Shown one piece after another: positions 10,532 to 61,273 of a stretch of DNA of 64,000 nucleotides (positions are counted from its first letter, which is position 1; each line of letters starts with the position of its first letter). Position numbers and translations under genes: made by a program. Origin of the DNA: a virus; the IMG/VR virus record IMGVR_UViG_3300024312_000003, positions 1 through 64,000 of that record; one strand, written 5' to 3'. The notes below the pieces were generated by a model. The model searched no databases. It was not told where the DNA came from and saw only the letters and a program-made list of their open reading frames with translations.

Positions 10532-10563
10532 ATATAGGACTGTGAGAAATCACAGTCCTATAT
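10532..10563 (-). terminator. Terminator hairpin followed by a T12 tract on the minus strand
   Basis: ATATAGGACTGTGA-GAAA-TCACAGTCCTATAT, 14-bp stem; A12 at 10508-10519. Confidence 0.8.
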
Positions 10564-11101
10564 ATCTCATTTTGCATTCATTCCAATAAGACGGAGTCGT
10601 CTTTGTTTTTAAACATTTTCTTATATCTTCCAGTCCTTCTACTAACCAGTCACAATCCTTAACAGGAATGATGTGGTTTTTAGACTCACCAGTTTTCTTA
10701 TCTTGGTATTCGATAACGTAATGATGAGTAAAAGGTAAATCTGATAGACATAGCAATTCTCTCAGCTTTTTATTCTGTAGAATTTTTTGACAATTCGCAT
10801 AAAGGATATCTTCCTTAAAGAAAGGTATCTCGTGCTTTTGAAATGTCTTTCCAAGCTGCTTGGCTTTATAACCGTGCAGCTGTCTAAGATGTTCTATTCC
10901 GTCTTGGATGTGTCCGTACGGGGCTCCGGATTTTAAATAATACCAGAACCCCTCCATAGATTGAAATGGTCCGAAGTAGGGATGCGTGAATGGTGATTTG
11001 TCAAAGTGCGACAACATTCGACCCAACTCAGTCTTTCCCTTACTGTAAACATTAATATGGTTTATACCATCCCTGTCTACAGTTATTTCGGAATCAACCA
11101 T
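10550..11101 (-). CDS. NADAR/YbiA-fold protein (T4 gp30.3-like)
   Basis: LSHF..SPF....FQSMEGFWYYLK...LRQLHGYKAKQLGK...QKILQNKKLRELL fits the NADAR pattern. The likely start is the ATG at 11101, overlapping the upstream stop; the track's extension to 11320 lies inside the neighbouring gene. Confidence 0.65.
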   Translation of the reverse strand: MVDSEITVDRDGINHINVYSKGKTELGRMLSHFDKSPFTHPYFGPFQSMEGFWYYLKSGAPYGHIQDGIEHLRQLHGYKAKQLGKTFQKHEIPFFKEDILYANCQKILQNKKLRELLCLSDLPFTHHYVIEYQDKKTGESKNHIIPVKDCDWLVEGLEDIRKCLKTKTTPSYWNECKMRYIGL

Positions 11102-11741
11102 AGTGGACACCAACAGTTGTGCTGGTTGATTCATTAGCCGCCGGGCTGTCGCTGAACGTCTCGACTGGACTAGTCGTTTTATCAATATCAACTTGTTCCA
11201 AGATGATTTGATTAATCTTAGGTTGTTCAACCTCAGGTTTCTGTTCGTTGTTTTCTTTAGTAGAGTAATCCGTGGTAATTGGATTGAGATATTTCTTCTC
11301 AGCCTTTTCAATCTCATCAATGATCGGGAAGGCTTTTGGTTCTTGATATGCTGTATTGACGTCTACCAAGTGAGATACTTCTACAATTTTGTTATTCTCG
11401 AACTGAGCAACGATGATGATGCGGAAGCGTTTTACTTTCAAAAACATCATTGCTTTAACAAAGACTTTCCAAGTCATTGTTTTTCTTAGGAATTCTTTAT
11501 TTAGATTACCGCGTATGCTGGCAATGTCTCTTGGATTGTTTCGATGAATTGCTTCACGTAGAGCATAATCTTTGATATAAGTATACCAAAGCTCATGTCC
11601 CATACCCATTGACAATACTAGCTCTTTGAATAAAGTAGTCAGAACTGTCGGAATGGAGCTAGACTTACCAACACCGCGATCTGGATTATGCAGTAGATCA
11701 CGAAGGGTTTGTTGTTGGAATTTCTTCTTTGCTCGAAACAT
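11094..11741 (-). CDS. Conserved phiKZ-like hypothetical protein
   Basis: 215 aa with RGNLNKEFLRKTMTWKVFVKAMMFL, a motif I recall from phiKZ-like core genes. Confidence 0.6.
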   Translation of the reverse strand: MFRAKKKFQQQTLRDLLHNPDRGVGKSSSIPTVLTTLFKELVLSMGMGHELWYTYIKDYALREAIHRNNPRDIASIRGNLNKEFLRKTMTWKVFVKAMMFLKVKRFRIIIVAQFENNKIVEVSHLVDVNTAYQEPKAFPIIDEIEKAEKKYLNPITTDYSTKENNEQKPEVEQPKINQIILEQVDIDKTTSPVETFSDSPAANESTSTTVGVHYG

Positions 11742-11775
11742 TTTAGCTTCCTTAATAAGACGACTAAAGAGTTTA

Positions 11776-12354
11776 TTACTGATTTGTCGAACAATAAACT
11801 ATTCCTCTAACTATGCTTGTTAGAGAAATAATCACTGGAGATAGCGTTCGTAGATTGTGTTCTTCAACTCCATATTCTACATCGTTATAGTTAGCTATAC
11901 ACTCTGTGAAATTTTCAATCGATTTTACAAGTTCCGGTAGTTTACTACTTGGAATATATCTGCCAGAACCATCGATAAATAGTAAATCGAGATATTGATT
12001 TTCTATTTTAACATTATACCTTATTGCATCGTAGGTGGTATATTCAATAATCGAACTTGTTATTGCGTTTAGTTTGCTAATTAGCTCTGTAAAGTTATTT
12101 GAAAAAGTTAGAACCATCAAGATGGATCCTTTCTTAGGATCGTAGTTTTTCAGATCTACACTTGATAGCGATTCTACAGCTTTTACCAAATCTTCTTTCT
12201 TTTGATAATTAGTATATTCGATTGGTGAGCTTTGCGATTCTACATATACACCACTTTCTCTGTAAGGAGTTGGAAGTATAAGATTCGTCACAAAATTGAA
12301 AAATGATTGTTTAAAAATTGCGATCATTTTTGCTAAATTAAAGGTTGTACTCAT
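11776..12354 (-). CDS. Hypothetical protein
   Basis: 192-aa ORF with ATG at 12354. Confidence 0.65.
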   Translation of the reverse strand: MSTTFNLAKMIAIFKQSFFNFVTNLILPTPYRESGVYVESQSSPIEYTNYQKKEDLVKAVESLSSVDLKNYDPKKGSILMVLTFSNNFTELISKLNAITSSIIEYTTYDAIRYNVKIENQYLDLLFIDGSGRYIPSSKLPELVKSIENFTECIANYNDVEYGVEEHNLRTLSPVIISLTSIVRGIVYCSTNQ

Positions 12355-12402
12355 GTTTTATACATTTAATGTGAATGTCGATCATGTGCTACATACTACA
12401 TG

Positions 12403-12420
12403 AGTGATATGTAACTATAT
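12403..12420 (-). promoter_or_regulatory. Putative early (virion-RNAP) promoter motif
   Basis: Minus strand reads ATATAGTTACATATCACT, similar to the phiKZ early consensus TATATTAC. TACATATCACT recurs exactly at 63855-63865. Confidence 0.4.
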
Positions 12421-12450
12421 ACTTTTGTATTATAAGAATTGGAAAAAATC

Positions 12451-12927
12451 ATGTCTGTTAATAACGAAATCGCCAATATGGAAGTATTAGACGATGATCA
12501 AGCGCTAGCTTTTACACAGAAAGCTAGAAGAAAGATTGTTAGTAAAATATTGGAAAAGGGAGAAATCCCTGAAGATAAAGGAGAACAAATAATGTTACTT
12601 CAAGCTCTAGACGGAATGGATAGAGCTGCTCTAGGTAATAAGAGAATTAAAGCGGATGAGAAGGCCAGCGATGCTCTTGGTGATTCGTCTGCTCTCATAG
12701 CGCAAATGCTCACTCAAATGGCAGGTAATGTTAAACTTGCTAAGTCTGAAGATATAGTTGATGTGGAAGCAAAAGACATAACTGCTCCTGCTTTACCAGA
12801 TACAATACCTGATCCGATACTGGTGCCTGGAGAAACAACCATAGGCGCTCCACAATTAGATTATGATTCATTCATGAACAGCATGAACGGTAGAGAAATT
12901 CCACAACTCACCGATGACGATCAATAA
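12451..12927 (+). CDS. Hypothetical protein
   Basis: 158 aa from the ATG at 12451, with GGA upstream; helical, acidic. Confidence 0.7.
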   Translation: MSVNNEIANMEVLDDDQALAFTQKARRKIVSKILEKGEIPEDKGEQIMLLQALDGMDRAALGNKRIKADEKASDALGDSSALIAQMLTQMAGNVKLAKSEDIVDVEAKDITAPALPDTIPDPILVPGETTIGAPQLDYDSFMNSMNGREIPQLTDDDQ

Positions 12928-12959
12928 GGCATAAAGAGGGGAATTCCCCTCTTTATGCT
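12928..12959. repeat. 32-bp palindrome, copy 2 (31/32 match)
   Basis: GGCATAAAGAGGGGAATTCCCCTCTTTATGCT; its arm supplies the TAA stop of the minus-strand gene ending at 12953. Confidence 0.95.
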
Positions 12960-13684
12960 GTTGCTTTTTTAAAAGCATTCAACATCTTTTTACTTATGCT
13001 GAATACGGAGGTGTCTATTATTTTTAGACCAATTAATGGAGCGATGCTAAGCTCCATTGTTTTAAATGGATTCAGGTTATCCCTTTTGAATTCAGCTATT
13101 TTTTCTTCGCTTGGCTCGCAATCATAATAGAGAGATGGAGCTATAAAAATGACCGCAGGGATCGGCTTTGATACAAGATTATTTTGTTGAATATGCAGCC
13201 AGTCTGCAAAGTCATACTTAATGATCATGCAATAATTTTTCTTTATGAATTCTGGAGTTAAATCATCATTACTCATGCTGATTAATTCAACATCAGAACA
13301 ACCGTGATTTAATTGAAATATGACATCTCGCATTTCTTCAATTTCGTCAGGTTCTAATTCATAAGGAAATATATTCACAGTCAATGGATGACCTAGATTC
13401 TGACCACCTTTCATGTTTTCAATCACAGCTTCTTTTACAGTGGTGTGAATGATTTCAAATGTTTCAGTTATTAAACTAAAGGGAAGAATGTCTGCTGTTC
13501 TCTTTGAATAAAGTTCTTTAAATTCAGAAGCACTTATTCCTGGGAATTTATCGATGAATCTTTTATGATAATCAGAGTTAAGAACATCGACCGCTTTATC
13601 AGCGTCTAAACTTGCGAGCAAACCCATTCTTGTATCTAAAAGACTATCTAGGTCTATGTAGATTTTTGTGTTTTGCTCACTCAT
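12953..13684 (-). CDS. Hypothetical protein, possible HAD-like fold
   Basis: 243 aa; N-terminal IYIDLDSLLDT resembles HAD motif I. Confidence 0.55.
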   Translation of the reverse strand: MSEQNTKIYIDLDSLLDTRMGLLASLDADKAVDVLNSDYHKRFIDKFPGISASEFKELYSKRTADILPFSLITETFEIIHTTVKEAVIENMKGGQNLGHPLTVNIFPYELEPDEIEEMRDVIFQLNHGCSDVELISMSNDDLTPEFIKKNYCMIIKYDFADWLHIQQNNLVSKPIPAVIFIAPSLYYDCEPSEEKIAEFKRDNLNPFKTMELSIAPLIGLKIIDTSVFSISKKMLNAFKKATA

Positions 13685-13685
13685 G

Positions 13686-14150
13686 TTATTTCTTTTCCAT
13701 GCTTTCCAATATATCTTTGTAAAAGATAATCAGGAGAACAAAAGTAACCAGCCATTTATTTCTTTTAAGAGCATCTTCAACTTCTCTCTGGCTTGGTAGT
13801 CTGTCGTTTATTTCTTTAGGAATGAGAGACTGCGTTTGCTCTTCCTCAGAAACAGTCATTGAATGACAGAGAATATCAATCATTGCATCTTGATCAAAAT
13901 TACCACTGTTGAACAATGTCTGAAATCTAATGGTGGTGTTAAGAATGTAATCTCTATTAACCGCAGCGCTGAACACAGAATCAACAGTTGTACGAAGACC
14001 GATTGCGCTTGGGATCAGATAAAGATTTAAACCACAAGCACTGTTTAAAAGAAAGGCTTGTACTTTATTTCTCACATCACCAATGTAAGTTTCAATGGTT
14101 GATTTGTGTGCTGAAACAATGCAGTCTCTTAGAAAATCATTAAGTTCCAT
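13686..14150 (-). CDS. Hypothetical protein
   Basis: 154-aa ORF, tightly packed in the operon. Confidence 0.7.
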   Translation of the reverse strand: MELNDFLRDCIVSAHKSTIETYIGDVRNKVQAFLLNSACGLNLYLIPSAIGLRTTVDSVFSAAVNRDYILNTTIRFQTLFNSGNFDQDAMIDILCHSMTVSEEEQTQSLIPKEINDRLPSQREVEDALKRNKWLVTFVLLIIFYKDILESMEKK

Positions 14151-14160
14151 TATTGTTTCC

Positions 14161-14847
14161 TTAATTATTAAGTAGTGTGTTTCTTAAATGCATTGCTGTA
14201 AGATACGAACTAAGTGTAGTGGTAGCTTTGACTTTGGTGCCCAGTTTATCCAAATAACTCAAACTAACACCGCCGGTTTTATTGATAGAGTCATTCATCG
14301 CATTAAAACCATTCAAATCACCACCGCGATACTTTATCAATTCAGTGATTGTGTCGTCTAGTTGCAATGCTGCTAGAATCTGAAGTTCTGGATAGGATAT
14401 CTTACTTCCTTTAGACGAACCTGTGGGTTGACCAGTCATGTGATCAATTGAACGATTATCTTCTGGAATACTGATCTTTTTAATCAGGAGCTGTGCTTGT
14501 CTACGAAGCGGTAGATCTACTACTAAATATTTTTTAGTAGTTAGGAATCTACCATTGCCTTTAGGATCTTCCATCCATATCTTCTCAAAGAACTCATGGC
14601 CTAGTTCCTCAGCAATTTTCAAATTGTTATCTATTGAGATTTTTTTATCTGATAGATTAGGAACAATTATGGCTAATCTACTTTTGCCAGTAGCAATATC
14701 TTGCATCAATTGATCGAAGGCAATATCGTCAAGAGACTCAAATAGATTTTTATAAATCTTTGTATTTTCACTACCTGGTAGTAATTTTTCAATATGGTCG
14801 ATTATGAACTTTTCGACTATTTTTCTATTGGACATATTCATCACCAT
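14161..14847 (-). CDS. rpoB: Virion RNA polymerase beta subunit, C-terminal part (phiKZ gp149-like)
   Basis: SIDHMTGQPTGSSKGSKISYPELQILAA...ELIKYRGGD parallels the RpoB C-terminal TQQPLGGK...GEMEVWAL...EMLTVKSDD. Confidence 0.8.
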   Translation of the reverse strand: MVMNMSNRKIVEKFIIDHIEKLLPGSENTKIYKNLFESLDDIAFDQLMQDIATGKSRLAIIVPNLSDKKISIDNNLKIAEELGHEFFEKIWMEDPKGNGRFLTTKKYLVVDLPLRRQAQLLIKKISIPEDNRSIDHMTGQPTGSSKGSKISYPELQILAALQLDDTITELIKYRGGDLNGFNAMNDSINKTGGVSLSYLDKLGTKVKATTTLSSYLTAMHLRNTLLNN

Positions 14848-14872
14848 TGATTTTAAGACATAACATTAACAT

Positions 14873-15304
14873 TCATGTCTTTGGAATGAATAGATAGTTT
14901 TTAACGTTTCTTTTCTTTAGCTCACTTAACATGTGTTGTGTACCTGGACTTACACCATCCCAAATAAGAAATGCTAAATTGACAACTTTAGACATCTCTG
15001 TATTTCTTATACTTCCGGCTGATTTACCATAGTAATCCCAAAAAGCCCGATAGTAGAAACAAGGTAAATTGTGTTTCTTACAAAACTCAATTATTAAAGT
15101 ATCTACTCCCGGTGCTTTTCCAGACACAAAACAAAAATCTCGACCTTTTAGATATCTCAAAACACCCAACATCTTCTTCTCGAAGTAATCCCAATCATTA
15201 TAGGATCTACTACCAGCAACAAGAACTCGATATTGAAAACTATCTATTAATCGGTCTTCTATGTTAACGCCTTCTCGTTTTCTTTCTGGCGGCGGCCCTT
15301 GCAT
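14873..15304 (-). CDS. YspA-related SLOG family (DUF2493-like) protein
   Basis: VLVAGSRSYND...VSGKAPGVDT...YGKSAGSIRN.EM...WDGVSPGTQHM. The start is uncertain; the ATG at 15304 was chosen. Confidence 0.8.
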   Translation of the reverse strand: MQGPPPERKREGVNIEDRLIDSFQYRVLVAGSRSYNDWDYFEKKMLGVLRYLKGRDFCFVSGKAPGVDTLIIEFCKKHNLPCFYYRAFWDYYGKSAGSIRNTEMSKVVNLAFLIWDGVSPGTQHMLSELKKRNVKNYLFIPKT

Positions 15305-15503
15305 TCTGTTTGTGTGATGATTTTGCTTTGCGTGCATACTTACTAGGCTTATCTTCAAAGTCACCAGACTGACAAGGAGATTCAGGATCCGGCAAATCTT
15401 CAATTTCCAAGTCGGATTCATCCTGTTTAATGTGTGATTGTGCTTGTCCTGTATTCATAGCTACCGCAGCCATTGTTGCTAGTCTTAGAAGTTCAGATCG
15501 CAT
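15264..15503 (-). CDS. Small protein with acidic middle and basic C-terminus
   Basis: 79 aa ending ARAAARKKTRRR. Confidence 0.55.
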   Translation of the reverse strand: MRSELLRLATMAAVAMNTGQAQSHIKQDESDLEIEDLPDPESPCQSGDFEDKPSKYARKAKSSHKQNARAAARKKTRRR

Positions 15504-15532
15504 TTTACTTGTGATCGGTTAAAAGTATGTAA

Positions 15533-15563
15533 AATAAAAGAGGGGAATTCCCCCTCTTTTATT
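15533..15563. repeat. Variant of the 32-bp palindrome (terminator-like)
   Basis: AATAAAAGAGGGG-AATTC-CCCCTCTTTTATT between co-oriented minus-strand genes. Confidence 0.85.
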
Positions 15564-15879
15564 ACGTCTTGAATTTAGGCAAATCAAATTCAACAATACT
15601 AGGAATGACGCTTTCTTTCAAAAGCTTCTCCCATGTACGGTTATCGCCACCATCCACAATACAAAACCTCTCAAAGGGAGCGGCTTTTGGAGCATCCGCT
15701 AGTGTCAGTCTGAGCGCTCTATTTACAAGAAAACGCTTATGACCACTCTCGACATTATGGACATTTGGATCTAGAAGCTTTTGCCATCTTTTTGGTTCAG
15801 AGTGACCAGCTTCAGCCATTAGCTTGTCAACGACGGCTATTGGATCTATTGATTCTTCTACGTTTGATAATTCATTCAT
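15562..15879 (-). CDS. Hypothetical protein
   Basis: 105-aa ORF directly downstream of uvsX. Confidence 0.7.
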   Translation of the reverse strand: MNELSNVEESIDPIAVVDKLMAEAGHSEPKRWQKLLDPNVHNVESGHKRFLVNRALRLTLADAPKAAPFERFCIVDGGDNRTWEKLLKESVIPSIVEFDLPKFKT

Positions 15880-15880
15880 T

Positions 15881-17359
15881 TTATTCGACGATTACTACGC
15901 CAGTTGTTTCTGTTGAAATTTGTCCTACAGTCAATGGTTTGATTGTAGGTGATTTAATTTTTGATCTTTGTTCTTCGGTGAACCAATATGGAATATATTG
16001 ACCAACACGCATTTTAAGAAGATCCATGGTACTCAAAAACGGAGTGTTGTTAGTACCTTCAAGAGCCCACCAACCTCTAGTGTTGAGAAGAATCTTCCAA
16101 TCATAACCTAGAGCTATCAGATCATCGTAGAGTTGCTTAGGTGTGCACATCAGTTCTTCAGGAATATGGTGCCATAGATCATTAATCTGACACATTTCTG
16201 AAGTGATGTTCAGAGCCCTTCGCAATTCTGGGTGAGCATCAATTTTTCGACGAACAGTTGTTCTAGACAGCTTGATATCTGGCAAAAGAGATAGGTAATA
16301 GTTTTGAAGAGTACCTTCAATGCCGTACCTGTCTGTTGACTTGATATAGTGAAACTCAGTCAAGCTTGGAAGTACCCCGTCTTGCTGTGAAACAATTAGT
16401 TTCATAGCCATGCCCGAAGGACCAGACTTACTTCTGAGTTGACGAATTGTCACTTCGTTTAGATCTGTGTCACCTTTGAGATCGTCGTCAGAATCTCGAG
16501 GATATTCTGGCGCTTTGGTGGTATCGTTACGAAGAGGAGCAGCGTTATAGCAAAGCCAACAATTGTTCATCACAAAAGTGAACTTTTCCGGAACACCTTT
16601 GAGCTTAACACCTTGAGGAATGTGTTGTAGTTTCTTAGGAGCAGGTGCTCTAGGATCCATATTGAACTCAGACCCGATGTGTGCAGTCATCAGTGTGTAT
16701 GAGTATGTACCGCCAGATAGCGCAGGGATCTCCATCAAGAATCGATTCTTTTGAAGACCTTGACGCATTGATACTGTGTTAGCACCAGATTCACCAAGAC
16801 TGTTTTCGTCCTGCATCTTAATGACGTCTTGAGTGACGAATTCACTAAGTGAATCGATCTCAGAGAAAGACGGCATTGTAATTTCTAGATTACCGGTCTT
16901 TTCACGATTCCAAAAAGGAGTCTTAACGGTGTACTTAACCGCGTTCTTCTTTTTGTCATTCATGAATTCTTTTAGAATATCAAAGTATTGATCACCTTGA
17001 TAAACTGTCTTATCAGTAATGGTCCACCGACCTGATTCCAGAATATCTTCACCACCGAATTCTTCAATATTGGCAATCATCCTCTTGAGATGCCATTCAT
17101 GGATGTTAATCTCGGTGTCGTAGGTATTACCCATTGATCCAACGATTCTCGACATGGCGGTAAACGACATGTAGTGCATTACGGTGGATTTAAAGTTATT
17201 ACCAATACCAACCACACCAGTTAGAAAACCAAGACCACCATTGAGAATACTCTCCCCGTGTCGTCCAGTCACATATGTACCTGTCGGAATATCGAGACAG
17301 GCGCCTACGTTAATCATCACCTTTATTGGTGGGGCTGCTTTAAAAGGATTAATTAGCAT
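15881..17359 (-). CDS. uvsX: UvsX/RecA-like recombinase (phiKZ gp152-like)
   Basis: Variant Walker A GVVGIGNNFKST, YDTE motif, IDSLSEF Walker B; 492 aa. Confidence 0.85.
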   Translation of the reverse strand: MLINPFKAAPPIKVMINVGACLDIPTGTYVTGRHGESILNGGLGFLTGVVGIGNNFKSTVMHYMSFTAMSRIVGSMGNTYDTEINIHEWHLKRMIANIEEFGGEDILESGRWTITDKTVYQGDQYFDILKEFMNDKKKNAVKYTVKTPFWNREKTGNLEITMPSFSEIDSLSEFVTQDVIKMQDENSLGESGANTVSMRQGLQKNRFLMEIPALSGGTYSYTLMTAHIGSEFNMDPRAPAPKKLQHIPQGVKLKGVPEKFTFVMNNCWLCYNAAPLRNDTTKAPEYPRDSDDDLKGDTDLNEVTIRQLRSKSGPSGMAMKLIVSQQDGVLPSLTEFHYIKSTDRYGIEGTLQNYYLSLLPDIKLSRTTVRRKIDAHPELRRALNITSEMCQINDLWHHIPEELMCTPKQLYDDLIALGYDWKILLNTRGWWALEGTNNTPFLSTMDLLKMRVGQYIPYWFTEEQRSKIKSPTIKPLTVGQISTETTGVVIVE

Positions 17360-17466
17360 TCTTTCCTCTTTATGAGTAAAGTGAGTGTTCGTATCAATAT
17401 ATAGAAATATCTAGTAATTTTGTGACATATCTACTCTACACCTATCGCTTAGAATAGGAACATCAC

Positions 17467-18315
17467 ATGAAACACATATCCGTTAATATTCAAAAGACTG
17501 CTCAAGAAGAGCTTTTTACTGCTTGCAATAAGATTGCTTTAGAGTCCTATACCGAAGGTATAGGTATGGAATTTTTTACTGAGAACTTTCAGATAGTAGC
17601 GACAAACATTGAAAAGGTGTTTGACAACAGCTTCGATTTGATAAAAAACTTGTCAGTAACTAAGTTTCTTAAAAACTATACATTTGAATCACAAGTAAGT
17701 AAGATAAATTACGCAGCTATTGATCAGATAAAAATCACAATACCTGAAGGATTTACTGGCAATGCTAAAGAGTATTGTCAAGAATTAATAAAACAAGTAA
17801 GTCACGTATCCACTATCACAACCCAGGTAATACTGCCTTTTAATCAATACATCAGCTCTCTTATATCTGATAAGGATTTTGCAAAGGCATATAAGTCTAA
17901 ACCAGTGTACCTGCATGACAGAGATGCCAAAAGAGAAGAGATGAATAAAACCATTTCTAAGTATTTTGGACACGGTACTCTGTCTTCTGGTAAATTGTCA
18001 CAGCACTATCATTCAGGTGTCGAAGTTGCTGAAACAGACATACTGGTTGGTGAACTCAGCGATTCATTAGGCACTACCGACGTTGTTTCTATTCGTAAGA
18101 TGGTTACTGATTCTGTGGATCTAATTAACGCACTTCAAGATCTTGTATCTAAGAATCAAATAACAAATCTATCTGATTCACAGAAGAGACTTCTTGCTGA
18201 AATGTGCACAACGATTGCTAGGGAAATTGAATTCTATGCAATAACTAGATATCGTGCTGATTCCTTCATCAATACTTTTGCAAAAACAAAAGAAGCTGTA
18301 AAGAAGATTCTTTAA
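17467..18315 (+). CDS. Virion (head) protein (phiKZ gp153-like position)
   Basis: 282 aa; the N-terminus carries A-L-E and G-M-E, matching the S/A/G-X-E prohead-protease motif. Confidence 0.55.
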   Translation: MKHISVNIQKTAQEELFTACNKIALESYTEGIGMEFFTENFQIVATNIEKVFDNSFDLIKNLSVTKFLKNYTFESQVSKINYAAIDQIKITIPEGFTGNAKEYCQELIKQVSHVSTITTQVILPFNQYISSLISDKDFAKAYKSKPVYLHDRDAKREEMNKTISKYFGHGTLSSGKLSQHYHSGVEVAETDILVGELSDSLGTTDVVSIRKMVTDSVDLINALQDLVSKNQITNLSDSQKRLLAEMCTTIAREIEFYAITRYRADSFINTFAKTKEAVKKIL

Positions 18316-18318
18316 GGA

Positions 18319-18360
18319 CATAAATCCCATTTCGCCTTTTGAGCGAAATGGGATTTTATG
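18319..18360. terminator. Bidirectional terminator hairpin
   Basis: AAATCCCATTTCGC / GCGAAATGGGATTT arms between convergent genes. Confidence 0.85.
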
Positions 18361-18364
18361 CAGT

Positions 18365-18757: not shown

Positions 18758-18813
18758 TTTTCTTTCCGGGATCCTGATTTTTGGCGGAAACAAGATCCCG
18801 CCCAAAAAGATTG

Positions 18814-51909: not shown

Positions 51910-51943
51910 TGTTGATCCTATGAAATAAATAGGAGAATCTTCC

Positions 51944-52684: not shown

Positions 52685-52718
52685 GGCATAAAGAGGGGAT
52701 TTCCCCTCTTTATGCCCT
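52683..52718. repeat. 32-bp palindrome (31/32 match, loop ATTT), arms extended to 16 bp
   Basis: AGGGCATAAAGAGGGG-ATTT-CCCCTCTTTATGCCCT between convergent genes. Confidence 0.95.
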
Positions 52719-55294
52719 TATGCTAAACTTCTATAGGTCAAAGCATTTCCTTGTTGAATCCAATATGTTCCATCAAATTTAAATTTGATGGAACCAACCC
52801 CTGAATTTAAACCAGCAGGATCATCATCTTTCTTAAAGATACTATTCCAAATTATTGTTCTTGCGGTGGCTGATTGCCTTATTGTGAATGTTAACTCATC
52901 ACCAGTTTTAGCATATAACGGTGCATTTATTGTAACATCGGCATCCGGGACAAGAACTGTCACATTATCACCAACTAGAACATTATGCGTTACAGAGGTA
53001 GCTCTGTAGTTTCTGTTTTTATAAGATAATCCTTCGACATTCTTTACTCTAACTATAGGTAAAGATGAAGCGTTTGCTTCTATCGGATTATCTACTTGTG
53101 CAAAATCGCAATCACTTACATTTAAATACGTTGCTCTCGGAGGACTATTACTAGCAGCTCCAATCCCAATCACACCTGTTGCACCTGCTGCTTTTCTAAC
53201 AGTTAAATTTTGTACAAAAAGAGTATTGTTAGCAAGTGATATACTACCAGGTGTGGTGACTGTAGCTCCATTTAAAATGAAGTTATTACCGTCTAGGTCC
53301 TTTAAAGTAATTGTGGTCGAATTTACAATTTGACCGATGCTGTAGAAACCATTAGCAGAACCAACACTGAGCACATTACCAGTTATCGATACAAAATCTC
53401 CCTGCTTCCATCCTAAATAAGCACACTCAATTGCTGCAGCAGAAGCAGAAGCAGAAATATTAGAGATCGTTTTAGTCTGCCAAACATTACCGGAGAATGA
53501 GAACCTAACCGCAAAAGCGTTAGTTGCTAATTCTTCAATTAATCCACTTATTGTTGTGTTTTCAGAATTATGTAACGTAATAGCTGCCGTAGTAGACGGC
53601 ATGTTGGTGCAGACCATGTGACAATTTATTAAATTGTCTTTCGATTTCTGTATTGTTGATTCATTAGTAACCCAAACACCACCATTCGCAGGTACATTTG
53701 GTAAACTAAAATTGAGTTTATTAGACTGAGTGTCTATTAAGTAAGCGCCTTCAAATCTCTGAGCTGTTCCTGTGGTGTCGTTTATATCTATTCTACCGTT
53801 GACAGTTATATCACTGGTTCCAATAGAATGTAAGCCGTGTGAATTGATACCGCTGTGAGATAGTTCTAGATGAAGAATACACCCTGTTCCAGAGCCACCA
53901 GTCGGTGAGTTAGGAGTGCTAGGTAAGACACTATATTTACCTCTTGATATCGGCCTTACAGCTTGCACAGCTCCATTGCCGTCAACTTGAGTTACTCTAT
54001 ATACAGCAGGTTCATCAAAAGTACCACCAGCTATAGTTAAATCTTCTCCAACTTTATAACCTGTACCAGCGGAACATCTTATAAGTTTACCAGACGTCCA
54101 AGCAGTAAAAGTAGATCCGTCTAAACCTACATTGCTTCTGAAAGCATTGTCAGATAATTGTAACGTATCTGTTGCCGGGCTTCTAACTTGATAGAAGCCC
54201 ACTAAATTCTGCATACCGTCAGAGGGAATATCAATAAATGACACAACCTCACCGGTTACTAATCCATGTCCCGCAAGACTTACTTGAACTGGATTGGCTG
54301 CAGTGACTGCAGTTGGAGTTCCGATTATTACTCCAGGAACAGCGGAATAAACGCCCTTACCATCGAAACCAGTTTCAATGTTGACATGGGCAGTTATATC
54401 TCTTAAATCATTTACCACACGGTTGTCCGGGGTGGCGTGATTCATGAACGATATTGCACCATTTCTTAGTATTCCAGCTTTTCCAATGATGTGAACTTTA
54501 CCACCATAAACCTTACCAGTCTTGGTATATCCTAATGCTGAGAATGGTTTTGCGGCTGGAGTGTATGCTTTATATCCATTACCTCTGGTAGATATAACTG
54601 TAACGTTTTCTACACTAAAATTCTTCAGACTCTGGTCATCACAATACACACTGGCAGTAACTTGATCATCTCCAGTTGCAACGCCGTCGTCTCCAGATTC
54701 CACATACCCATTGGTTACACGAATATCTTCTCCGTAAAGTATGTGTAGTCCATCTTGAAATACTCTGGTTGCACCTAGTATTTTAAAGTTATTGATGTTT
54801 ATTCTTTTACCGCTGATTCTAGTTGTCCAGTTGAGTGACCATAATCCAGCAATCATAGTTACGTTGTCGATATCGAGATCTTCTGCATTCATGTAATCCA
54901 TGACTGCTAAATAATTCTTGTTATTTGAATCAAGAATTATATTTCTCAAACCCATCTTCCTGGCAGATCCATACCAGCTACCGTTTTTAAGTATCCATTT
55001 AGCTTTTATACACGCTACCTTGTTACTGGTAAACATGCTTTCAGAATAACTCAGATTTGTTACTTTTTTAAGAGTAGAACCATTACCATCCACTATTACA
55101 AACTCTGGATGATTGATACCATCGACGTTATATTCGTGTTCTTTTCTCAATAATGCTGTTAAAGGTCTTCCTAAAGCCAAGGCGTCGGAACTTGTATCGT
55201 TTAAAAATTCCTCAATCCTAGCCGTGTCATTGTATCCAGTACCGGGAGGTCCGATTCTGATGTCTTTTAGTTGATTTAAACTAATTAATGGCAT
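52718..55294 (-). CDS. Beta-helix polysaccharide depolymerase / tailspike-like protein (GH28-like motifs)
   Basis: FQDGLHI...DIRVTNGYVESGDDGVA resembles GH28 NTDG...GDD; Asn/Ile-rich beta-helix coils; inserted FCCH-like modules. Confidence 0.7.
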   Translation of the reverse strand: MPLISLNQLKDIRIGPPGTGYNDTARIEEFLNDTSSDALALGRPLTALLRKEHEYNVDGINHPEFVIVDGNGSTLKKVTNLSYSESMFTSNKVACIKAKWILKNGSWYGSARKMGLRNIILDSNNKNYLAVMDYMNAEDLDIDNVTMIAGLWSLNWTTRISGKRININNFKILGATRVFQDGLHILYGEDIRVTNGYVESGDDGVATGDDQVTASVYCDDQSLKNFSVENVTVISTRGNGYKAYTPAAKPFSALGYTKTGKVYGGKVHIIGKAGILRNGAISFMNHATPDNRVVNDLRDITAHVNIETGFDGKGVYSAVPGVIIGTPTAVTAANPVQVSLAGHGLVTGEVVSFIDIPSDGMQNLVGFYQVRSPATDTLQLSDNAFRSNVGLDGSTFTAWTSGKLIRCSAGTGYKVGEDLTIAGGTFDEPAVYRVTQVDGNGAVQAVRPISRGKYSVLPSTPNSPTGGSGTGCILHLELSHSGINSHGLHSIGTSDITVNGRIDINDTTGTAQRFEGAYLIDTQSNKLNFSLPNVPANGGVWVTNESTIQKSKDNLINCHMVCTNMPSTTAAITLHNSENTTISGLIEELATNAFAVRFSFSGNVWQTKTISNISASASAAAIECAYLGWKQGDFVSITGNVLSVGSANGFYSIGQIVNSTTITLKDLDGNNFILNGATVTTPGSISLANNTLFVQNLTVRKAAGATGVIGIGAASNSPPRATYLNVSDCDFAQVDNPIEANASSLPIVRVKNVEGLSYKNRNYRATSVTHNVLVGDNVTVLVPDADVTINAPLYAKTGDELTFTIRQSATARTIIWNSIFKKDDDPAGLNSGVGSIKFKFDGTYWIQQGNALTYRSLA

Positions 55295-55396
55295 TTTATT
55301 CTCCGAGAATTGAGAGCTAGTACGTTTTAGTACTACAATCTTCCCTGGTGTGTATTTAATTACAAACTTATGATATTGCCTAGCTCATACAGTACG

Positions 55397-55433
55397 GCAT
55401 AAAAACGAAAGGATTAACCTTTCGTTTTTATGC
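55397..55433. terminator. Terminator hairpin with GCATAA/TTATGC shell
   Basis: GCATAAAAACGAAAGG-ATTAA-CCTTTCGTTTTTATGC, 16-bp perfect arms. Confidence 0.85.
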
Positions 55434-55455
55434 ATTTAACGTGATGTGTTAAATA

Positions 55456-56058
55456 TTAATTCCAAGTTAGAAATTGAATATACTCGCCAACAGCATGATC
55501 TTTTACTTGGTTTAGAAGAATACTTAAATCCATTCCTTGTTTAAGATATTCGCCTTCTTTGGTATACAATTTATAAGCTGTAAAACTTGGATAAATGTAT
55601 ATCTTTAATAAATAAGCTACCTCACCATATATTTCCAAAGTTCTATTAAATATATTGAGCCTGGATATGTCCGGTTGATTGGTGAACTTTACAGATACCG
55701 ATTTATCGTAGAAAATCTTAAATAGGATTTTAAGATAATTATTGATGACTGAATTAGAAATCAATTCATGATAAACTTCAGTTCTACCTGTTACTTCGTT
55801 GGTTCTGTATGGATATGTGTATCTTTGATTTGTAAGTATGATCGCTAGTATTTTTGCAATCGTGCTTGGAACCCTAACACTATTCCAGTAAAAGTTATCA
55901 TAATGTTTTCTATTAATCGGAGTTTCATTAAATAGCATATTGTAATTCTCATGTATGCTAATTATATCAACACTAAACTTTTGTTTAATTTCTTCAGAGT
56001 GTAATAGTAGAAATGTATTTTCTGAAGTTTTTAAAATACTTGACAGTGTACCATCCAT
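55456..56058 (-). CDS. Hypothetical protein
   Basis: 200-aa ORF, very AT-rich. Confidence 0.65.
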   Translation of the reverse strand: MDGTLSSILKTSENTFLLLHSEEIKQKFSVDIISIHENYNMLFNETPINRKHYDNFYWNSVRVPSTIAKILAIILTNQRYTYPYRTNEVTGRTEVYHELISNSVINNYLKILFKIFYDKSVSVKFTNQPDISRLNIFNRTLEIYGEVAYLLKIYIYPSFTAYKLYTKEGEYLKQGMDLSILLNQVKDHAVGEYIQFLTWN

Positions 56059-56098
56059 GATTTTACCTTTTTAAGCAAAAAAAAAATAACATAGAGCT

Positions 56099-56130
56099 TT
56101 TAGAGAGTAGGCATTAGCCTACTCTCTAAA
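56099..56130 (-). terminator. Terminator hairpin
   Basis: TTTAGAGAGTAGGC-ATTA-GCCTACTCTCTAAA; A10 at 56077-56086. Confidence 0.85.
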
Positions 56131-56133
56131 GTA

Positions 56134-56736
56134 TCAAGGACGTGAATTTGCTTGGAACTCACGCAACTCAGCTGTACGAACATCTTCCAAATACTGATGA
56201 TACTTGGAGATGAAGCCGCGACTCACCAGTTTGCCGTACAAAACATCGTGCCCGTGATATTCGTGATTTTTGGTGCCGGTACTTTCATTTGGATTGTAAT
56301 CCATGTCATTACCGGCATGCCGCATGATCAGGCTCCAAATTTGCTCACCAGTCAGTTGTTCAGCCAATCGCATGCGTTGCATGGTGAAAGGGTAAACGGG
56401 TGCCATACACAAAACCTCAGTGTCGGTGAGGTAATTGTAGATCACCGGGGTCGGAATTTCAGCTCGTGATACCATTTCGTATCGAACAACAAAACCAACG
56501 ACTGGACTGGAATTGTTATTACCAAAAGCAATAACTGGCCGCCCAATCATCATCTCCATCTCAATGTTTTGATGACGAATTTTATTTTCTTCCGCCGCTT
56601 TCTCAATTTGTAGAGCTTTCCTGGTCATGATTGAATTGCTCAATCGAGCCATCTTCTTCGGGAAGAAAGCATACAGCATTTCAATCAGCAGTCCGTTTTG
56701 ACCACTGGCTTCTTTGATGATTTGTTCATTTGTCAT
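56134..56736 (-). CDS. Hypothetical protein
   Basis: 200 aa, AAGGA RBS. Confidence 0.7.
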   Translation of the reverse strand: MTNEQIIKEASGQNGLLIEMLYAFFPKKMARLSNSIMTRKALQIEKAAEENKIRHQNIEMEMMIGRPVIAFGNNNSSPVVGFVVRYEMVSRAEIPTPVIYNYLTDTEVLCMAPVYPFTMQRMRLAEQLTGEQIWSLIMRHAGNDMDYNPNESTGTKNHEYHGHDVLYGKLVSRGFISKYHQYLEDVRTAELREFQANSRP

Positions 56737-56784
56737 GTTGTTTCCTTGTGTATTCTTAAGATTGTGCTTGCTTGTAAAAAACTA

Positions 56785-57066
56785 TCAGTGAAGAATTATT
56801 TTTGGGGGAGCTTTCCGATTGTGGAAAACCTGCATAGAGCCGTCTGAAAATACCAACACTGCAGTCGGACTGGTCATTGTATTCAAGATATTGGTAAATT
56901 GCTCTTTATATTCCCATTTCAAAATCTTGACAAAATCACAATTAATAGCGTTTCCAGAGACCATGTGTTCGACGTATTGTTCCTCAGTCAAATCACACTT
57001 GTAAATCGCGACGTCGTCTGGACGGTTGAACGTTGGTTCTTTATCAACAGTGATGGTAATTGCCAT
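56785..57066 (-). CDS. Hypothetical protein
   Basis: 93 aa in a tightly packed operon. Confidence 0.65.
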   Translation of the reverse strand: MAITITVDKEPTFNRPDDVAIYKCDLTEEQYVEHMVSGNAINCDFVKILKWEYKEQFTNILNTMTSPTAVLVFSDGSMQVFHNRKAPPKIILH

Positions 57067-57068
57067 AC

Positions 57069-57329
57069 TTAACTCACTAAATGCTGAATGTTGATTATTT
57101 CGTAATTATTCTTCTGGCATTGAAAGTTCTTCAATTCAATACCTTTTAGCGACTCAATTGTCTTTTGCGCTATTTCAATTGTGGTGAAGAATACTCCTTC
57201 AATTGTGGAGCCAATATCAGATTTACTCACCTTTCTAAAACAAGCTTCTGTCTTGTTATTAGAATTCATGATTAAACCAGCATAGACGAGGAATTCATCC
57301 TCGTCTTTTATGCCGATAAAATAAATCAT
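57069..57329 (-). CDS. Hypothetical protein
   Basis: 86 aa, ATGA overlap with the upstream gene. Confidence 0.6.
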   Translation of the reverse strand: MIYFIGIKDEDEFLVYAGLIMNSNNKTEACFRKVSKSDIGSTIEGVFFTTIEIAQKTIESLKGIELKNFQCQKNNYEIINIQHLVS

Positions 57330-57592
57330 AGATGGTATTTAGGGTGAGCCAGCGCTCGTCCGACCCAAATCTCATCGGCTTCACCAACGCCGACTCCCAG
57401 ACCTTTGGATTCACCAAATACCTGGACACCTTCGGCGGTTTGCGTGAAATAACCAGCCCCAGTAATTGTTCCAGGAATGAAACAGTGTTTGATTGCATCG
57501 TGAGGAACCACTTCTGGAATCAAAATGGCACCATCAACGATGACTGTGCCTGCGATGATTTCGCCAGTCACGTATTTTCCTTTTTCGTACAT
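57326..57592 (-). CDS. Small conserved phage hypothetical protein
   Basis: 88 aa from ATG 57592 (AAGGAG RBS); H...GAGYF...FGESKGLG...D pattern. Confidence 0.7.
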   Translation of the reverse strand: MYEKGKYVTGEIIAGTVIVDGAILIPEVVPHDAIKHCFIPGTITGAGYFTQTAEGVQVFGESKGLGVGVGEADEIWVGRALAHPKYHL

Positions 57593-57593
57593 T

Positions 57594-58121
57594 TTATTCT
57601 CCTTGATAAACAATGAATGATTGATTTTTTGCTTTGGAGATTTCTTTCCAAAGCATTTCAGGAACAGTGATGTCGTTGAAAGCAGGAATGAATGAAGGCA
57701 TGAAACCGCTTGACTTGTTAACAAGGGTCGACTTCAGAATCCACCTCTTAGAAGAATCAACTCCAGGCATTTGAGAAGGATACCACCAATCCATGATTGA
57801 CGGATTGATATTACTCTCATCAATGAACTTTTGCCGTATGACTCCAAATGAAATCATATCCTGACATGACTTGATCATCATCTCAAACAACATCTCTTGC
57901 ATGCTGTCTTTCTGAATTTTCAACCATCCGTTGAAAACAAAGTAAACGCTTGCTTTGAGGTTATCGAACAAAAGCTCATCCAAAGGCTTGTTGTCAAGTT
58001 CCTTTTGTGCGTTGATTTCAATCTCACATTTCAACAGTGAGACCCCAACTTTATTCATGACTTCGTTACCAAGCATTTTTTCAAATGCATTGTCGAAGTT
58101 CTCGCAAGTGTAAATGCTCAT
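57594..58121 (-). CDS. Hypothetical protein
   Basis: 175 aa from ATG 58121 (ATGA overlap). Confidence 0.65.
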   Translation of the reverse strand: MSIYTCENFDNAFEKMLGNEVMNKVGVSLLKCEIEINAQKELDNKPLDELLFDNLKASVYFVFNGWLKIQKDSMQEMLFEMMIKSCQDMISFGVIRQKFIDESNINPSIMDWWYPSQMPGVDSSKRWILKSTLVNKSSGFMPSFIPAFNDITVPEMLWKEISKAKNQSFIVYQGE

Positions 58122-58636
58122 TTGATTTTCATTGCGTGAATATCCCAACGATGATCGTAGAGGTCGTTGAGAAATTGTTGATGTGGCAACCAAGCTTCGT
58201 ACAACTTCTCATCCAAATTCACATTCGGATCATAATGACACTTACCGCCTTCGACAGGGATGAGTTGTTGACAGACATATGGACGTTCATCGAAACGCAA
58301 TGAACACCCAGTTTCTGTCAAATTGACACATTGACCAAAGTTATCCCCTCTGGATGTTTTGGTGCTCCATTGCTTACTGATTGATGTCGTCGGTTGCAAA
58401 ACCAAAAACGAGTAATCGGGAGCTACGAGAGTATCGCTATCAGGGTAGATATCGATCTGATTGATGACAACCAAACCATCATCCATCATCTTATCGATGA
58501 TTTCAAACTGATTAGTTTGCCCTTTGAGAATTTGGTTTGGCATGAATGAGCCGGGACTGCTCTTGCAGCACTGACCTCCGCAAGGTGTGCAGATGTCTTT
58601 GTTCTCGTTTTGAATTGGAATGACTTTTTGATTCAT
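58118..58636 (-). CDS. CxxCxxCC (YkgJ/UPF0153) putative Fe-S/Zn-binding protein
   Basis: CTPCGGQCC...CVNLTETGC...ERPYVC. Confidence 0.8.
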   Translation of the reverse strand: MNQKVIPIQNENKDICTPCGGQCCKSSPGSFMPNQILKGQTNQFEIIDKMMDDGLVVINQIDIYPDSDTLVAPDYSFLVLQPTTSISKQWSTKTSRGDNFGQCVNLTETGCSLRFDERPYVCQQLIPVEGGKCHYDPNVNLDEKLYEAWLPHQQFLNDLYDHRWDIHAMKIK

Positions 58637-58895
58637 GACTTGGACCTTTTCGCCTTACACTAGCGTACTTTTTCCATTCTCCAGAATACATCATTTTTTC
58701 ACACAGACCCTTAGCGGCTGAGAGCTTATGCCTCGGCATGTAAGTGGTTTGGTCTGTTATGATTTCTAGTTGGTTGACTAGATAGATGTTGTATCCTTTA
58801 TTTTGTTTGTAGTTTGGATCGATTAGGAACATCCACTCCTTATCCAGGAGCAGATATTCCCAGCCATACTTATCGACTTGCCAATAACCAAACAT
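58512..58895 (-). CDS. Hypothetical protein with a long 3' overlap
   Basis: 127 aa; the last 125 nt overlap the CxxCxxCC gene. Confidence 0.55.
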   Translation of the reverse strand: MFGYWQVDKYGWEYLLLDKEWMFLIDPNYKQNKGYNIYLVNQLEIITDQTTYMPRHKLSAAKGLCEKMMYSGEWKKYASVRRKGPSHESKSHSNSKREQRHLHTLRRSVLQEQSRLIHAKPNSQRAN

Positions 58896-58897
58896 TT

Positions 58898-59533
58898 TTA
58901 TTTTGTCTTAACTTTTGCAATAGAAGTATAGACACCTTCTTTAGCCTTTTGCATCTCTGGATTTTCCAGAGATTTCTCATAGTAGTGTTTGTTTACCAAC
59001 CAAATGGACTCACCTGTTGGGAATTTCACTTTTCGCAACATAGTAAGTTTATGACGATATTTACAGTCATATTGGTAATATTGCTCCAACAAGACACTAC
59101 CATCGTCAAATACTTCAGATTCACCATTCAGACGAGTACGCCAATGTCCTGAATTTGTTTTTTGTTCGATATTGAACAAAGCCAATTCTTCAGAAATAGG
59201 AATGAATTGAAGTACAATGGTGAAACCAAATCTGTTGATGTGTTCCAAATCATAATCTGGACGAATTTTCAGAAGTTCCAAATTCAAGGCAATCATTTCT
59301 TGATAGATGTCTCGAACCCTGGACGTTGAAATGCTGTATTGTTCAGCCAAGTCTTTGACTTTTGCATTGTGATTATAGATTTTATCCATGATCACTTTGT
59401 TTCTTGCAGGAATTCGATTGATCTTTTCGAACAATCGGATATAGGCTTCATGTTGCCAAATTTGTCTGTTGTGGTAATCGATTTCCTCAACAGCTGCGGA
59501 ATTAGTGTTAACAAATCGGACAGAGTTAGTCAT
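58898..59533 (-). CDS. Protein with a sigma-70 region 4-like HTH
   Basis: INRIPARNKVIMDKIY...VKDLAEQYSISTSRVRDIYQEMI fits L..L..RE..V..L.Y....T..EIA..LGIS..RVRQI. Confidence 0.6.
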   Translation of the reverse strand: MTNSVRFVNTNSAAVEEIDYHNRQIWQHEAYIRLFEKINRIPARNKVIMDKIYNHNAKVKDLAEQYSISTSRVRDIYQEMIALNLELLKIRPDYDLEHINRFGFTIVLQFIPISEELALFNIEQKTNSGHWRTRLNGESEVFDDGSVLLEQYYQYDCKYRHKLTMLRKVKFPTGESIWLVNKHYYEKSLENPEMQKAKEGVYTSIAKVKTK

Positions 59534-59535
59534 GA

Positions 59536-60393
59536 TTATTTCTTTCTGTACTTTTCAATAGGTTGAGCATTTGCATAAATGTCTTTTAGGATGGCTGCGC
59601 CTTCATCAATTCTAACAGACATTCCGCTGGCAAATTTATGACCACCACCGTTAATAGTTTTATGTTTAACGGCGTGATTAGAAACATCAAAGCTGTTGCT
59701 TCTAAGAGAAAAGACCATATGTCCTTCGCTTGTTACGAAGTACATGGCTGCGAAATCAATCGCGTAATCCGTGTATAGTTTCTCTCCGACTTCAGAGAAA
59801 AGTCCAGTCACGTTAACAACCGCACACAAAGCACCATCCCATTCGCCAACTACTGCTTTTGAAACAAACGAATCGACTACCGCAGATTCGTATTTCATCA
59901 AGTAAGGCGCTTCTGTCAATAGTTCACTGGTATCGTGAAGATGTTTCTCATATTCGCGAAAATCTTTAATTCCTTTTAGAACTGAAGTTACTTTTCTAGT
60001 ATCTTCAATTTTGAATTTCCACAAATCTCGATCCTGAATGATTTTTATCAGCTCAGGCGGTTGTTGGTCTTTGTGAAAATATTCCCAAGCCAACATGGCT
60101 CCAGATTTATCCATGTCGAATTGTGCAAAAGGTAACCCGCTTAGCTGATCCATTGCTGTTTTATGATGATCCAAAACAATCAAAGAATTCGATCGATCAT
60201 TTAGAGAAATCAGAGTTTCTTTTGGATATGAAAAATCCAGAATGAAAATGTTTGACCCAGACTCGATTTCCGGCAATGGTTTGTTGTAATTGACAGGAAT
60301 ATAAATTGCATTTTCCCTGAATTTCAGAAACGCAGCCAAAGCCGCTCCGCTACCATCGGTACAGTTTTCATGGAACAAGACGATATTTTTCAT
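59536..60393 (-). CDS. DHH/DHHA1 phosphoesterase (NrnB/oligoribonuclease-like)
   Basis: HENCTDG, ILDF, LDHHKTA, IQDRDLW and GGGHKFASG motifs. Confidence 0.9.
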   Translation of the reverse strand: MKNIVLFHENCTDGSGAALAAFLKFRENAIYIPVNYNKPLPEIESGSNIFILDFSYPKETLISLNDRSNSLIVLDHHKTAMDQLSGLPFAQFDMDKSGAMLAWEYFHKDQQPPELIKIIQDRDLWKFKIEDTRKVTSVLKGIKDFREYEKHLHDTSELLTEAPYLMKYESAVVDSFVSKAVVGEWDGALCAVVNVTGLFSEVGEKLYTDYAIDFAAMYFVTSEGHMVFSLRSNSFDVSNHAVKHKTINGGGHKFASGMSVRIDEGAAILKDIYANAQPIEKYRKK

Positions 60394-60406
60394 GATTTAG
60401 TTTCCT

Positions 60407-61273
60407 TTACTTATAACGTTTGACTTTGTGATCGTTAACGAAATCTTCATCCCAAACACAGAAAGCGCGATGCCGAATGTTGCTATTGGTAATCATACCG
60501 CCAGGATACTCCAGTCCACGATAACCGTATTCTTCCAACATCACGCGAATGCGTTGATAATTGAGTTTTCGATAAGGGAAGTGATGATGCTTCACCACTC
60601 GAAGGAAATCATCAAATTTCTCAATTTGAATAACTTTACGACGTTCATCGTGTACCCAGCTTCGAACCACAGACCCTGTTACTGGATCGCGTCGAGCCAC
60701 CAGTCTCGAATTTTCACGAATGGTGACTTCAATCTTGTCAGCAACACACCCCCAATCAAAGAACATTTTCAAATATTCTTCAGGAGTGGTACGGTCGAGC
60801 ATCAACATCGAGTCGTTGAACAATCTTTCAGGGAAATTGAATTCGCTGATGTACCCGACTTGTTTGGGTTTCTCTTTGTGATACGTGTAGTTGCAAGAAA
60901 GTGGTTGAGCTTTATCGAACAATGTGGATCGATCGATCTTAACCTCAATGAAACCTTCCTCAATCTTGTCAAGGAATTGATAGTGATCGAAGCTGGTAGC
61001 TTCTTCAATCTTTTTCTTCAAAACTTCAGTCACGTATCGACCGTACGCGATTTCTTGAGCGTGTTGTTTGGTTGCAGCTCTTCCTTGAAACAAGACCACT
61101 TTGGAGTCACGAGAATATCGCTCATAGTGACCTTTGGTACGATAAGTTTCAGCCACATTCTTCTTGGTGGTCAGATAAATACCTTGACCAACCAAACAAC
61201 GTTTGTTTGTTTTGTTGAAGTCGAATTCTTTGATTTTTTCAGCGTCACCGCGATAGAGTGTGATCGTGCTCAT
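60407..61273 (-). CDS. ADP-ribosyltransferase-fold (ART-PolyVal/PARP-like) protein
   Basis: LYRG...EFDF...GQGIYLT...VAETY at the N-terminus and GYRGLEY...AFCVWD at the C-terminus, with a long insertion between. Confidence 0.6.
   Translation of the reverse strand: MSTITLYRGDAEKIKEFDFNKTNKRCLVGQGIYLTTKKNVAETYRTKGHYERYSRDSKVVLFQGRAATKQHAQEIAYGRYVTEVLKKKIEEATSFDHYQFLDKIEEGFIEVKIDRSTLFDKAQPLSCNYTYHKEKPKQVGYISEFNFPERLFNDSMLMLDRTTPEEYLKMFFDWGCVADKIEVTIRENSRLVARRDPVTGSVVRSWVHDERRKVIQIEKFDDFLRVVKHHHFPYRKLNYQRIRVMLEEYGYRGLEYPGGMITNSNIRHRAFCVWDEDFVNDHKVKRYK

Follow-up and report, generated by a model that had tools for sequence, protein, structure and literature searches.

Two probably independent NAD/ADP-ribose modules, NADAR with SLOG and an ART-like gene with its own partner, in a jumbo phage record

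AdfN (gp30.3), the NADAR protein of phage T4, strips guanine-linked ADP-ribose from DNA and defeats DarTG1 (PMC11825919, PMC11125620). It requires E36 and K43 (PMC11825919), E36 being the equivalent of the catalytic Glu of PnNADAR (E43), and the last strand bears a His in phage NADARs, a Glu in YbiA and an Asp in DarT1-linked NADARs and BC4488 (PMC11125620, PMC11543638). NADAR is present in about half of jumbo phages (PMC9503650); the frequencies given are ~48% for NADAR and ~31% for SLOG, with co-occurrence above chance, and ADP-ribosyltransferases (ARTs), NADARs and YAcAr-SLOGs with their fusions have already been catalogued in these phages (Iyer et al. 2021, 2022; PMC7824862, PMC9503650). 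The window analysed here, bases 1-64000 of a 180,490-bp IMG/VR viral record (IMGVR_UViG_3300024312_000003, estimated to be 65% complete), carries a NADAR gene, a YAcAr (YspA-type) SLOG gene and a gene for an ART-like protein (Table 1). An earlier note on this DNA had proposed, as a hypothesis, that the three form a single dispersed toolkit that writes, erases and senses ADP-ribose marks. The span probably holds instead two independent nicotinamide adenine dinucleotide (NAD)/ADP-ribose modules: module A, NADAR with SLOG, and module B, in which the ART-like gene has a partner of its own.

An open reading frame (ORF) check found all three genes on the minus strand where they had been placed, and their assignment to ADP-ribose-type folds holds. 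The phage is of the jumbo type, with phiKZ-type RNA polymerase (RNAP) genes. By protein similarity the Ralstonia jumbo phages RP12, RP31 and FLC stand nearest to it among cultured phages (NADAR identity 46-48%); at the DNA level megablast with the two regions revealed no relatives in the phage collection. In the available 180 kb of the record NADAR, SLOG, the ART-like gene and its partner occur in one copy each, and no Macro or Nudix gene was found. Searches of the genome for Alt-like and DarT families gave no match and were uninformative, as the controls were equally silent.

Co-occurrence separates the ART-like gene from the other two. It was present in one of the 48 NADAR-bearing records longer than 100 kb that served as the sample for co-occurrence counts. 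Ralstonia phage RP13, the only cultured phage with an ART-like homologue, has partner and ART, and no NADAR, YAcAr or Nudix was found in it; RP12-type phages have NADAR and SLOG, with no ART found. The ART-like gene is therefore placed outside the NADAR-SLOG set. A metagenome scan with the ART profile yielded 26 ART loci, none with NADAR within 10 kb (a scan of viral contigs with the same profile gave a single locus), and in the window ART and NADAR lie 49 kb apart, so that the DarT-NADAR adjacency of a DarTG1-style operon was not seen. The earlier note had named independent occurrence of the genes across genomes as what would refute the set, and for the ART that is what was found. With the ART independent and provided with its own partner, a single toolkit is not supported.

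The NADAR protein (P0001) had no Pfam match at E ≤ 1, either to PF08719 or to PF08010, and only 3/56 and 2/56 of its relatives weakly match these two models (NADAR and Phage_30_3). It matches PHROG 652 (E 3e-39). A single-sequence search of the PDB was uninformative; with a profile built from 56 homologues, the NADAR structure 8bau ranked first among PDB entries (E 1.8e-4) and Escherichia coli YbiA second (E 0.12). When the AlphaFold2 (AF2) model (predicted local distance difference test score, pLDDT, 95.5) was run through Foldseek, three NADAR structures, namely YbiA and two NADAR crystal structures, ranked first. In VIA the same model gave Z 11.9 (8bau), 11.2 (2b3w) and 10.0 (8bat), while every other one of the 999 chains stayed below Z 2. 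The NADAR-like call of the earlier note is thus borne out by profile, Foldseek and VIA alike.

The predicted active site of P0001 follows that of AdfN. E50 aligns with the ADP-ribose-contacting Glu of 8bau and is conserved in 55/56 homologues; K57 stands seven residues further on, at a position held by K/R in 26/56; and H126, in an LPF-x-H-Y-Y strand motif, is conserved in 54/56. This set agrees with the published phage-NADAR signature (PMC11825919, PMC11125620, PMC11543638) and, since both fold and active-site residues match that signature, the NADAR reading is sound. P0001 shares the YbiA/NADAR fold with T4 gp30.3/AdfN, 8bau, 8bat and 2b3w (Z 10-12), and with T4 AdfN also the catalytic Glu in an S-x-E helix, the Lys at +7, the last-strand His and the stand-alone form (about 160-185 aa). 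It differs from T4 AdfN in the lack of a Phage_30_3/NADAR Pfam match, in its jumbo-phage setting and in its synteny with SLOG. The other comparison is with AdfM, a nuclear Macro protein of a chimallivirus that counters DarTG2 (PMC13309987). Both would be jumbo-phage erasers of DarT-placed ADP-ribose on DNA, but the fold here is NADAR rather than Macro, the base would be guanine rather than thymine, and no Macro gene was found in the record. Since P0001 is of the AdfN type, the anti-DarT1 role suggested for it is reasonable, and the function is one that the family is already known to have.

The NADAR gene begins with an ATG at 11101, in an 8-nt overlap (ATGGTTGA) with the stop of the preceding gene, for which reason a longer, TTG-started ORF reaching 11320 was judged spurious. 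A search for longer NADAR-family proteins found one, carrying PF14216 (presumably DUF4326). In a contig of G049 (C9; L123:1081-2031) NADAR occupies residues 130-275 of a 317-aa ORF whose N-terminal ~130 residues have no assignment. Several viral loci (L052, L056, L072, L075, L084, L086 and L088) hold two NADAR paralogues within a few kb.

With Pfam YAcAr the SLOG protein (P0002) reached 33.6 bits, where the cut-off is 28.2 (35.5 bits in the genome-level search), as expected of the YspA-type SLOG that had been claimed. Its link to NADAR was followed in 80 viral contigs with a P0001-family gene. SLOG lay within 10 kb of NADAR in 35 of these, on the same strand every time: at 3.0-6.3 kb in 26, nearly always with SLOG upstream, at 1.0 kb in three and at 9.6 kb in one. 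The spacing in the window is 4.2 kb. At the other five of the 35 (L043, L060, L085, L096 and L100) NADAR and SLOG form a single ORF, and in PHROG 11222 the N-terminal half matches NADAR and the C-terminal half SLOG. Among the 48 large NADAR-bearing records YAcAr was detected at E ≤ 1e-3 in 33, and in 24 of them it exceeded the cut-off. The order NADAR, RNAP beta-like, SLOG, UvsX is common to RP12 and the window. Synteny and these Rosetta-stone fusions together show that NADAR and SLOG are evolutionarily linked, in keeping with the link to NADAR that the earlier note gave for YspA-type SLOG domains, and the pair is a vertically inherited part of a conserved core block.

The NADAR-SLOG link itself is not new; it has been published, and the statement that no such set had been described is wrong for jumbo phages in general (PMC7824862, PMC9503650). 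Like the YAcAr SLOGs linked or fused to NADAR, Macro or Nudix in the sets of Iyer et al., the one here exceeds the YAcAr cut-off, lies on the same strand as NADAR and has relatives fused to it. Unlike in those sets, the two genes are ~4 kb apart with conserved core genes, including the RNAP beta-like gene, between them, and neither Macro nor Nudix was found with them in the available sequence.

The start of the SLOG gene is ambiguous because its frame stays open as far as 15421 and the extension is overlapped by a 79-aa ORF in a different frame (15264-15503); a start at 15304 is plausible. The 79-aa ORF has a C-terminus rich in basic residues. A GC-rich, terminator-like hairpin with a T-run follows the ORF at 15562-15879, just before the 79-aa ORF (region 15264-15565). 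In one record (G010) the YAcAr SLOG gene is doubled in tandem.

The ART-like protein (P0003) is closest to ART-PolyVal (PF18760, HYD2 clade) and DUF3990 (PF13151), which are its best neighbours by sequence, features and fold. Its Pfam scores lie below the gathering cut-offs: 21.1 bits for DUF3990 (cut-off 32.2), over the N-terminal 60 residues only, and 17.9 bits for ART-PolyVal (cut-off 31.2). Among 74 family members 52 weakly match DUF3990 and 32 ART-PolyVal, none over the cut-off. Foldseek against the PDB with the AF2 model (pLDDT 93.3) gave nothing significant, a single-sequence PDB search was uninformative, and the profile retrieved from the PDB a sub-threshold PARP16 motif match and nothing else. 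PADLOC returned only weak PDC-M13 matches. The claim of an ART fold is nevertheless upheld by the wide VIA search, in which nearly all of the top 50 entries were ART folds, and by BFVD, where the matches after the RP13 homologue were ART-PolyVal or polyvalent proteins (probability 1.0); Atlas concurs. The best VIA match (Z 10.3 over 142 residues) was a domain of the pre-ejectosome protein of cyanophage A4, followed by MbcT, tankyrase, RES toxin, ParT and diphtheria toxin (Z 8.6-8.2); DarT structures reached merely Z 4.4-4.8. Strand 1, strand 2 and the next helix align with those of ART-PolyVal in hhalign. P0003 differs from ART-PolyVal and DUF3990 in standing alone, not within a polyvalent or Rhs protein, and in the ~190-aa insert in its core; it differs from ART-PolyVal also in the replacement of the strand-1 His by Arg and, probably, of the strand-5 acid by His.

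R8 (LYRGD), Y33 (GxGIYLT), Y44, K47, F145, G253, G258, G259, H268 and N280 are invariant in the 74 sequences (~30% identity). These include the two ART motifs, the strand-1 R/H-G of LYRGD and the strand-2 Y/S of GxGIYLT. In hhalign against four genuine ART-PolyVal proteins, R8 pairs with the strand-1 His and Y33 with the strand-2 Tyr. Full-length hhalign of the two families aligned the N-terminal third alone; a C-terminal run paired H268 with the invariant E169 of ART-PolyVal in a weak local match (E 0.003, probability 10%). In the VIA ranges for PARP1, TNKS2 and diphtheria toxin the aligned end comes 16-18 residues after the catalytic Glu, which corresponds to ~268-272 of the model for that Glu. 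E255, on the strand preceding that of H268, is present in 88% of members. The site of P0003 thus probably reads R-Y-H, without a catalytic acid at strand 5. The ART-PolyVal active site is H-Y-D (PMC5512222). RES toxins, which phosphorolyse NAD+, have an R-Y-N site (PMC9503650), and they and Tpt1 (H-H-V) are active without a Glu (PMC9503650, PMC7955679). Of the ART as writer, then, the fold stands; the catalytic Glu is probably absent and, because the R-Y-H site recalls RES toxins, transfer of ADP-ribose to macromolecules by P0003 is no more than putative.

Apart from a homologue of P0178, the partner, which lies directly upstream on the same strand, no neighbour of the ART-like gene is widely conserved. 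A hidden Markov model (HMM) detected the partner in RP13 (ORF167 with ORF168) and in 17 separate contigs of metagenomic or viral origin; with two contigs of metagenome-assembled genomes (MAGs) and the window this makes 21 loci, and the order is always partner, then ART. Six further ART loci end at the ART, so that the partner position is not covered. The partner matched nothing in Pfam, PHROG, PADLOC, PDB profile or Atlas searches. Its profile, run against the full library, retrieved at least 160 clusters at 50% identity, mostly stand-alone proteins of 95-130 aa, and none of the 160 is fused to ART or NADAR. One family member, P0250, has a C-terminal Macro domain (E 3.8e-33). The cassette of partner and ART-like gene is apparently undescribed.

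This arrangement recalls ART toxin-antitoxin pairs (RES-Xre/MbcT-MbcA, ParT-ParS and DarT-DarG). The ART fold matches those of RES, MbcT and ParT at Z 8.3-8.6, the next gene upstream is small and cognate and, as in RES, Arg and Tyr are present with no catalytic acid evident. In DarG a toxin-binding module is combined with a Macro eraser (PMC13309987). The partner-Macro fusion P0250 resembles this arrangement. ADP-ribose-1''-phosphate (ADPr-1''P), the product of RES, is a classic Macro substrate. On both grounds the partner may be an inhibitor or regulator. The cassette differs from the known pairs in that P0003 has no Pfam match to RES, ParT or DarT and the partner no helix-turn-helix (HTH) or known domain; it is carried by lytic-type jumbo phages.

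Partner copies vary at some loci. Two tandem, partly overlapping copies precede one ART at L022:780-1449 and L024:9314-9983. At L011:9552-9995 and L012:9690-9998 a different upstream ORF of ~100 aa overlaps the ART start, which resembles partner swapping. At L027:1220-3438 three consecutive ORFs share an N-terminal module of ~15 residues (MLDKIRSFN-type) and are a possible array of paralogues with variable C-terminal domains; the middle one is a divergent member of the ART family.

In the window the ART-like gene does adjoin a P-loop-like and a DHH gene, as the earlier note observed, but neither is conserved beside ART and both were rejected as functional partners. The P-loop-like ORF matches PHROG 4182 only, of which the function is not assigned. 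Because bases 61278-61668 are missing from L005, a contig whose flanks are 99% identical, the P-loop gene is an insertion between partner and ART, not a conserved partner; the segment is present in L006 (88% identity). The DHH gene had no counterpart beside ART at any other locus. Its product is a candidate nanoRNase or cyclic-nucleotide phosphodiesterase.

Table 1. Features of modules A and B and their neighbours in the window
Feature	Coordinates	Strand	Remarks
NADAR (P0001), gp30.3/AdfN-type, 183 aa	10550..11101	-	predicted catalytic E50, K57, last-strand H126
phiKZ-type RNA polymerase beta-like gene	14161..14847	-	directly downstream of SLOG; marks core block common to RP12
YAcAr (YspA-type) SLOG protein (P0002)	14873..15304	-	Pfam PF10686; start uncertain
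DHH/DHHA1 phosphoesterase	59536..60393	-	PHROG 4771, E 1e-68; directly downstream of ART
Stand-alone ART-fold protein (P0003), 288 aa	60407..61273	-	nearest ART-PolyVal/DUF3990; ~190-aa insert in core
P-loop-like ORF, 138 aa	61245..61661	-	PHROG 4182; on 391-bp insertion 61278-61668
ART partner (P0178), ~100 aa, no known family	61743..62057	-	directly upstream of ART in 21 loci

The two modules would work as follows. Module A sits in a core block inherited with RP12-like jumbo phages. Its NADAR, judged by active-site sequence and by analogy with AdfN, most likely removes from phage DNA the guanine-linked ADP-ribose put there by DarT1-type toxins of the host, and its SLOG most likely works in the pathway of NADAR by binding or processing a nucleotide derived from ADP-ribose, as the fusions and synteny suggest. 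Module B, in an accessory region, comprises the ~100-aa partner followed by the ART-PolyVal-like protein, split here by the 391-bp insertion. The ART-like protein is predicted to bind NAD+, with non-canonical transfer of ADP-ribose or RES-like consumption of NAD+ as its putative activity; the partner would be its dedicated inhibitor or regulator, antitoxin- or immunity-like by analogy. Nothing ties module B to module A. More tentatively, the cassette may be a new phage ART system, with an R-Y-H site acting on NAD+ or a non-canonical acceptor and a partner that is either an inhibitor (sometimes Macro-fused) or a cofactor supplying the missing part of the active site, like HPF1 with PARP1.

Several observations weigh against parts of this reading. 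NADAR is present, more than 50 kb away, on three of the four large ART-bearing contigs (the window, G040 and a 216-kb contig of G049). Three ART loci have no partner, two of them having a different small upstream ORF and one a divergent paralogue array, and the partner-Macro fusion is confined to one 50%-identity cluster. The placement of H268 leans on a weak hhalign match and chain-range arithmetic, and E255 could be the catalytic acid instead. The presence of ART and NADAR on the same contigs is expected given NADAR in about half of jumbo phages; the sample is small and a loose association possible. These three contigs, together with the reality of all three folds, are what speaks for a single dispersed toolkit in which the ART writes marks, NADAR erases them and SLOG senses them. 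That is nonetheless very improbable: 47 of the 48 large NADAR-bearing records have no ART, RP13 has partner and ART with no NADAR, SLOG or Nudix found, NADAR is 49 kb from ART in the window and none was found within 10 kb of ART at the 26 ART loci, and ART has a conserved partner, to which the sole eraser found fused is Macro, not NADAR.

Within module A, NADAR and SLOG might act on small molecules, degrading or sequestering soluble immune signals or toxins derived from ADP-ribose, such as cyclic ADP-ribose (cADPR) variants or ADPr-1''P. This was proposed by Iyer et al. for phage NADAR/SLOG/Macro/Nudix sets (PMC9503650); the fusions and synteny fit a division of labour on one ligand, and YAcAr SLOGs have nucleotide-binding and N-glycosidase domains among their relatives. 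It is a possible reading but an unlikely one, for the only tested member of the clade, T4 AdfN, acts on guanine-ADP-ribose DNA and counters DarTG1 (PMC11825919, PMC11125620), T4-type NADARs function without SLOG, and the available 180 kb yielded no Macro or Nudix. For module B, the apparent replacement of the canonical strand-5 acid by His, the failure of any Pfam ART model to reach its cut-off and the existence of pseudo-PARPs (TASOR, 6tl1, is among the VIA matches) would all suit a catalytically dead pseudo-ART, structural or binding NAD or ADP-ribose, with an upstream gene that is co-inherited and not regulatory. This is doubtful, and decidedly so. R8, Y33, Y44 and H268 are invariant at ~30% identity, pointing to a conserved ligand-binding or catalytic site; RES and Tpt1 proteins dispense with the Glu; and chance would hardly account for a partner adjacent in 21 loci and a Macro fusion besides. 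Two independent modules, one an AdfN-type NADAR with its SLOG and the other an ART-like protein with its partner, remain the probable account of the span.

With its NADAR this phage is a candidate for resisting DarTG1 in the AdfN manner, a route that would complement AdfM, the Macro protein lately demonstrated in chimalliviruses. Their synteny and fusions make NADAR and SLOG a convenient pair in which to work out what phage YAcAr SLOGs do, and the partner and ART-like protein form a compact two-gene module, with an unusual predicted active site, that could reveal new ART chemistry or a phage toxin-antidote logic.

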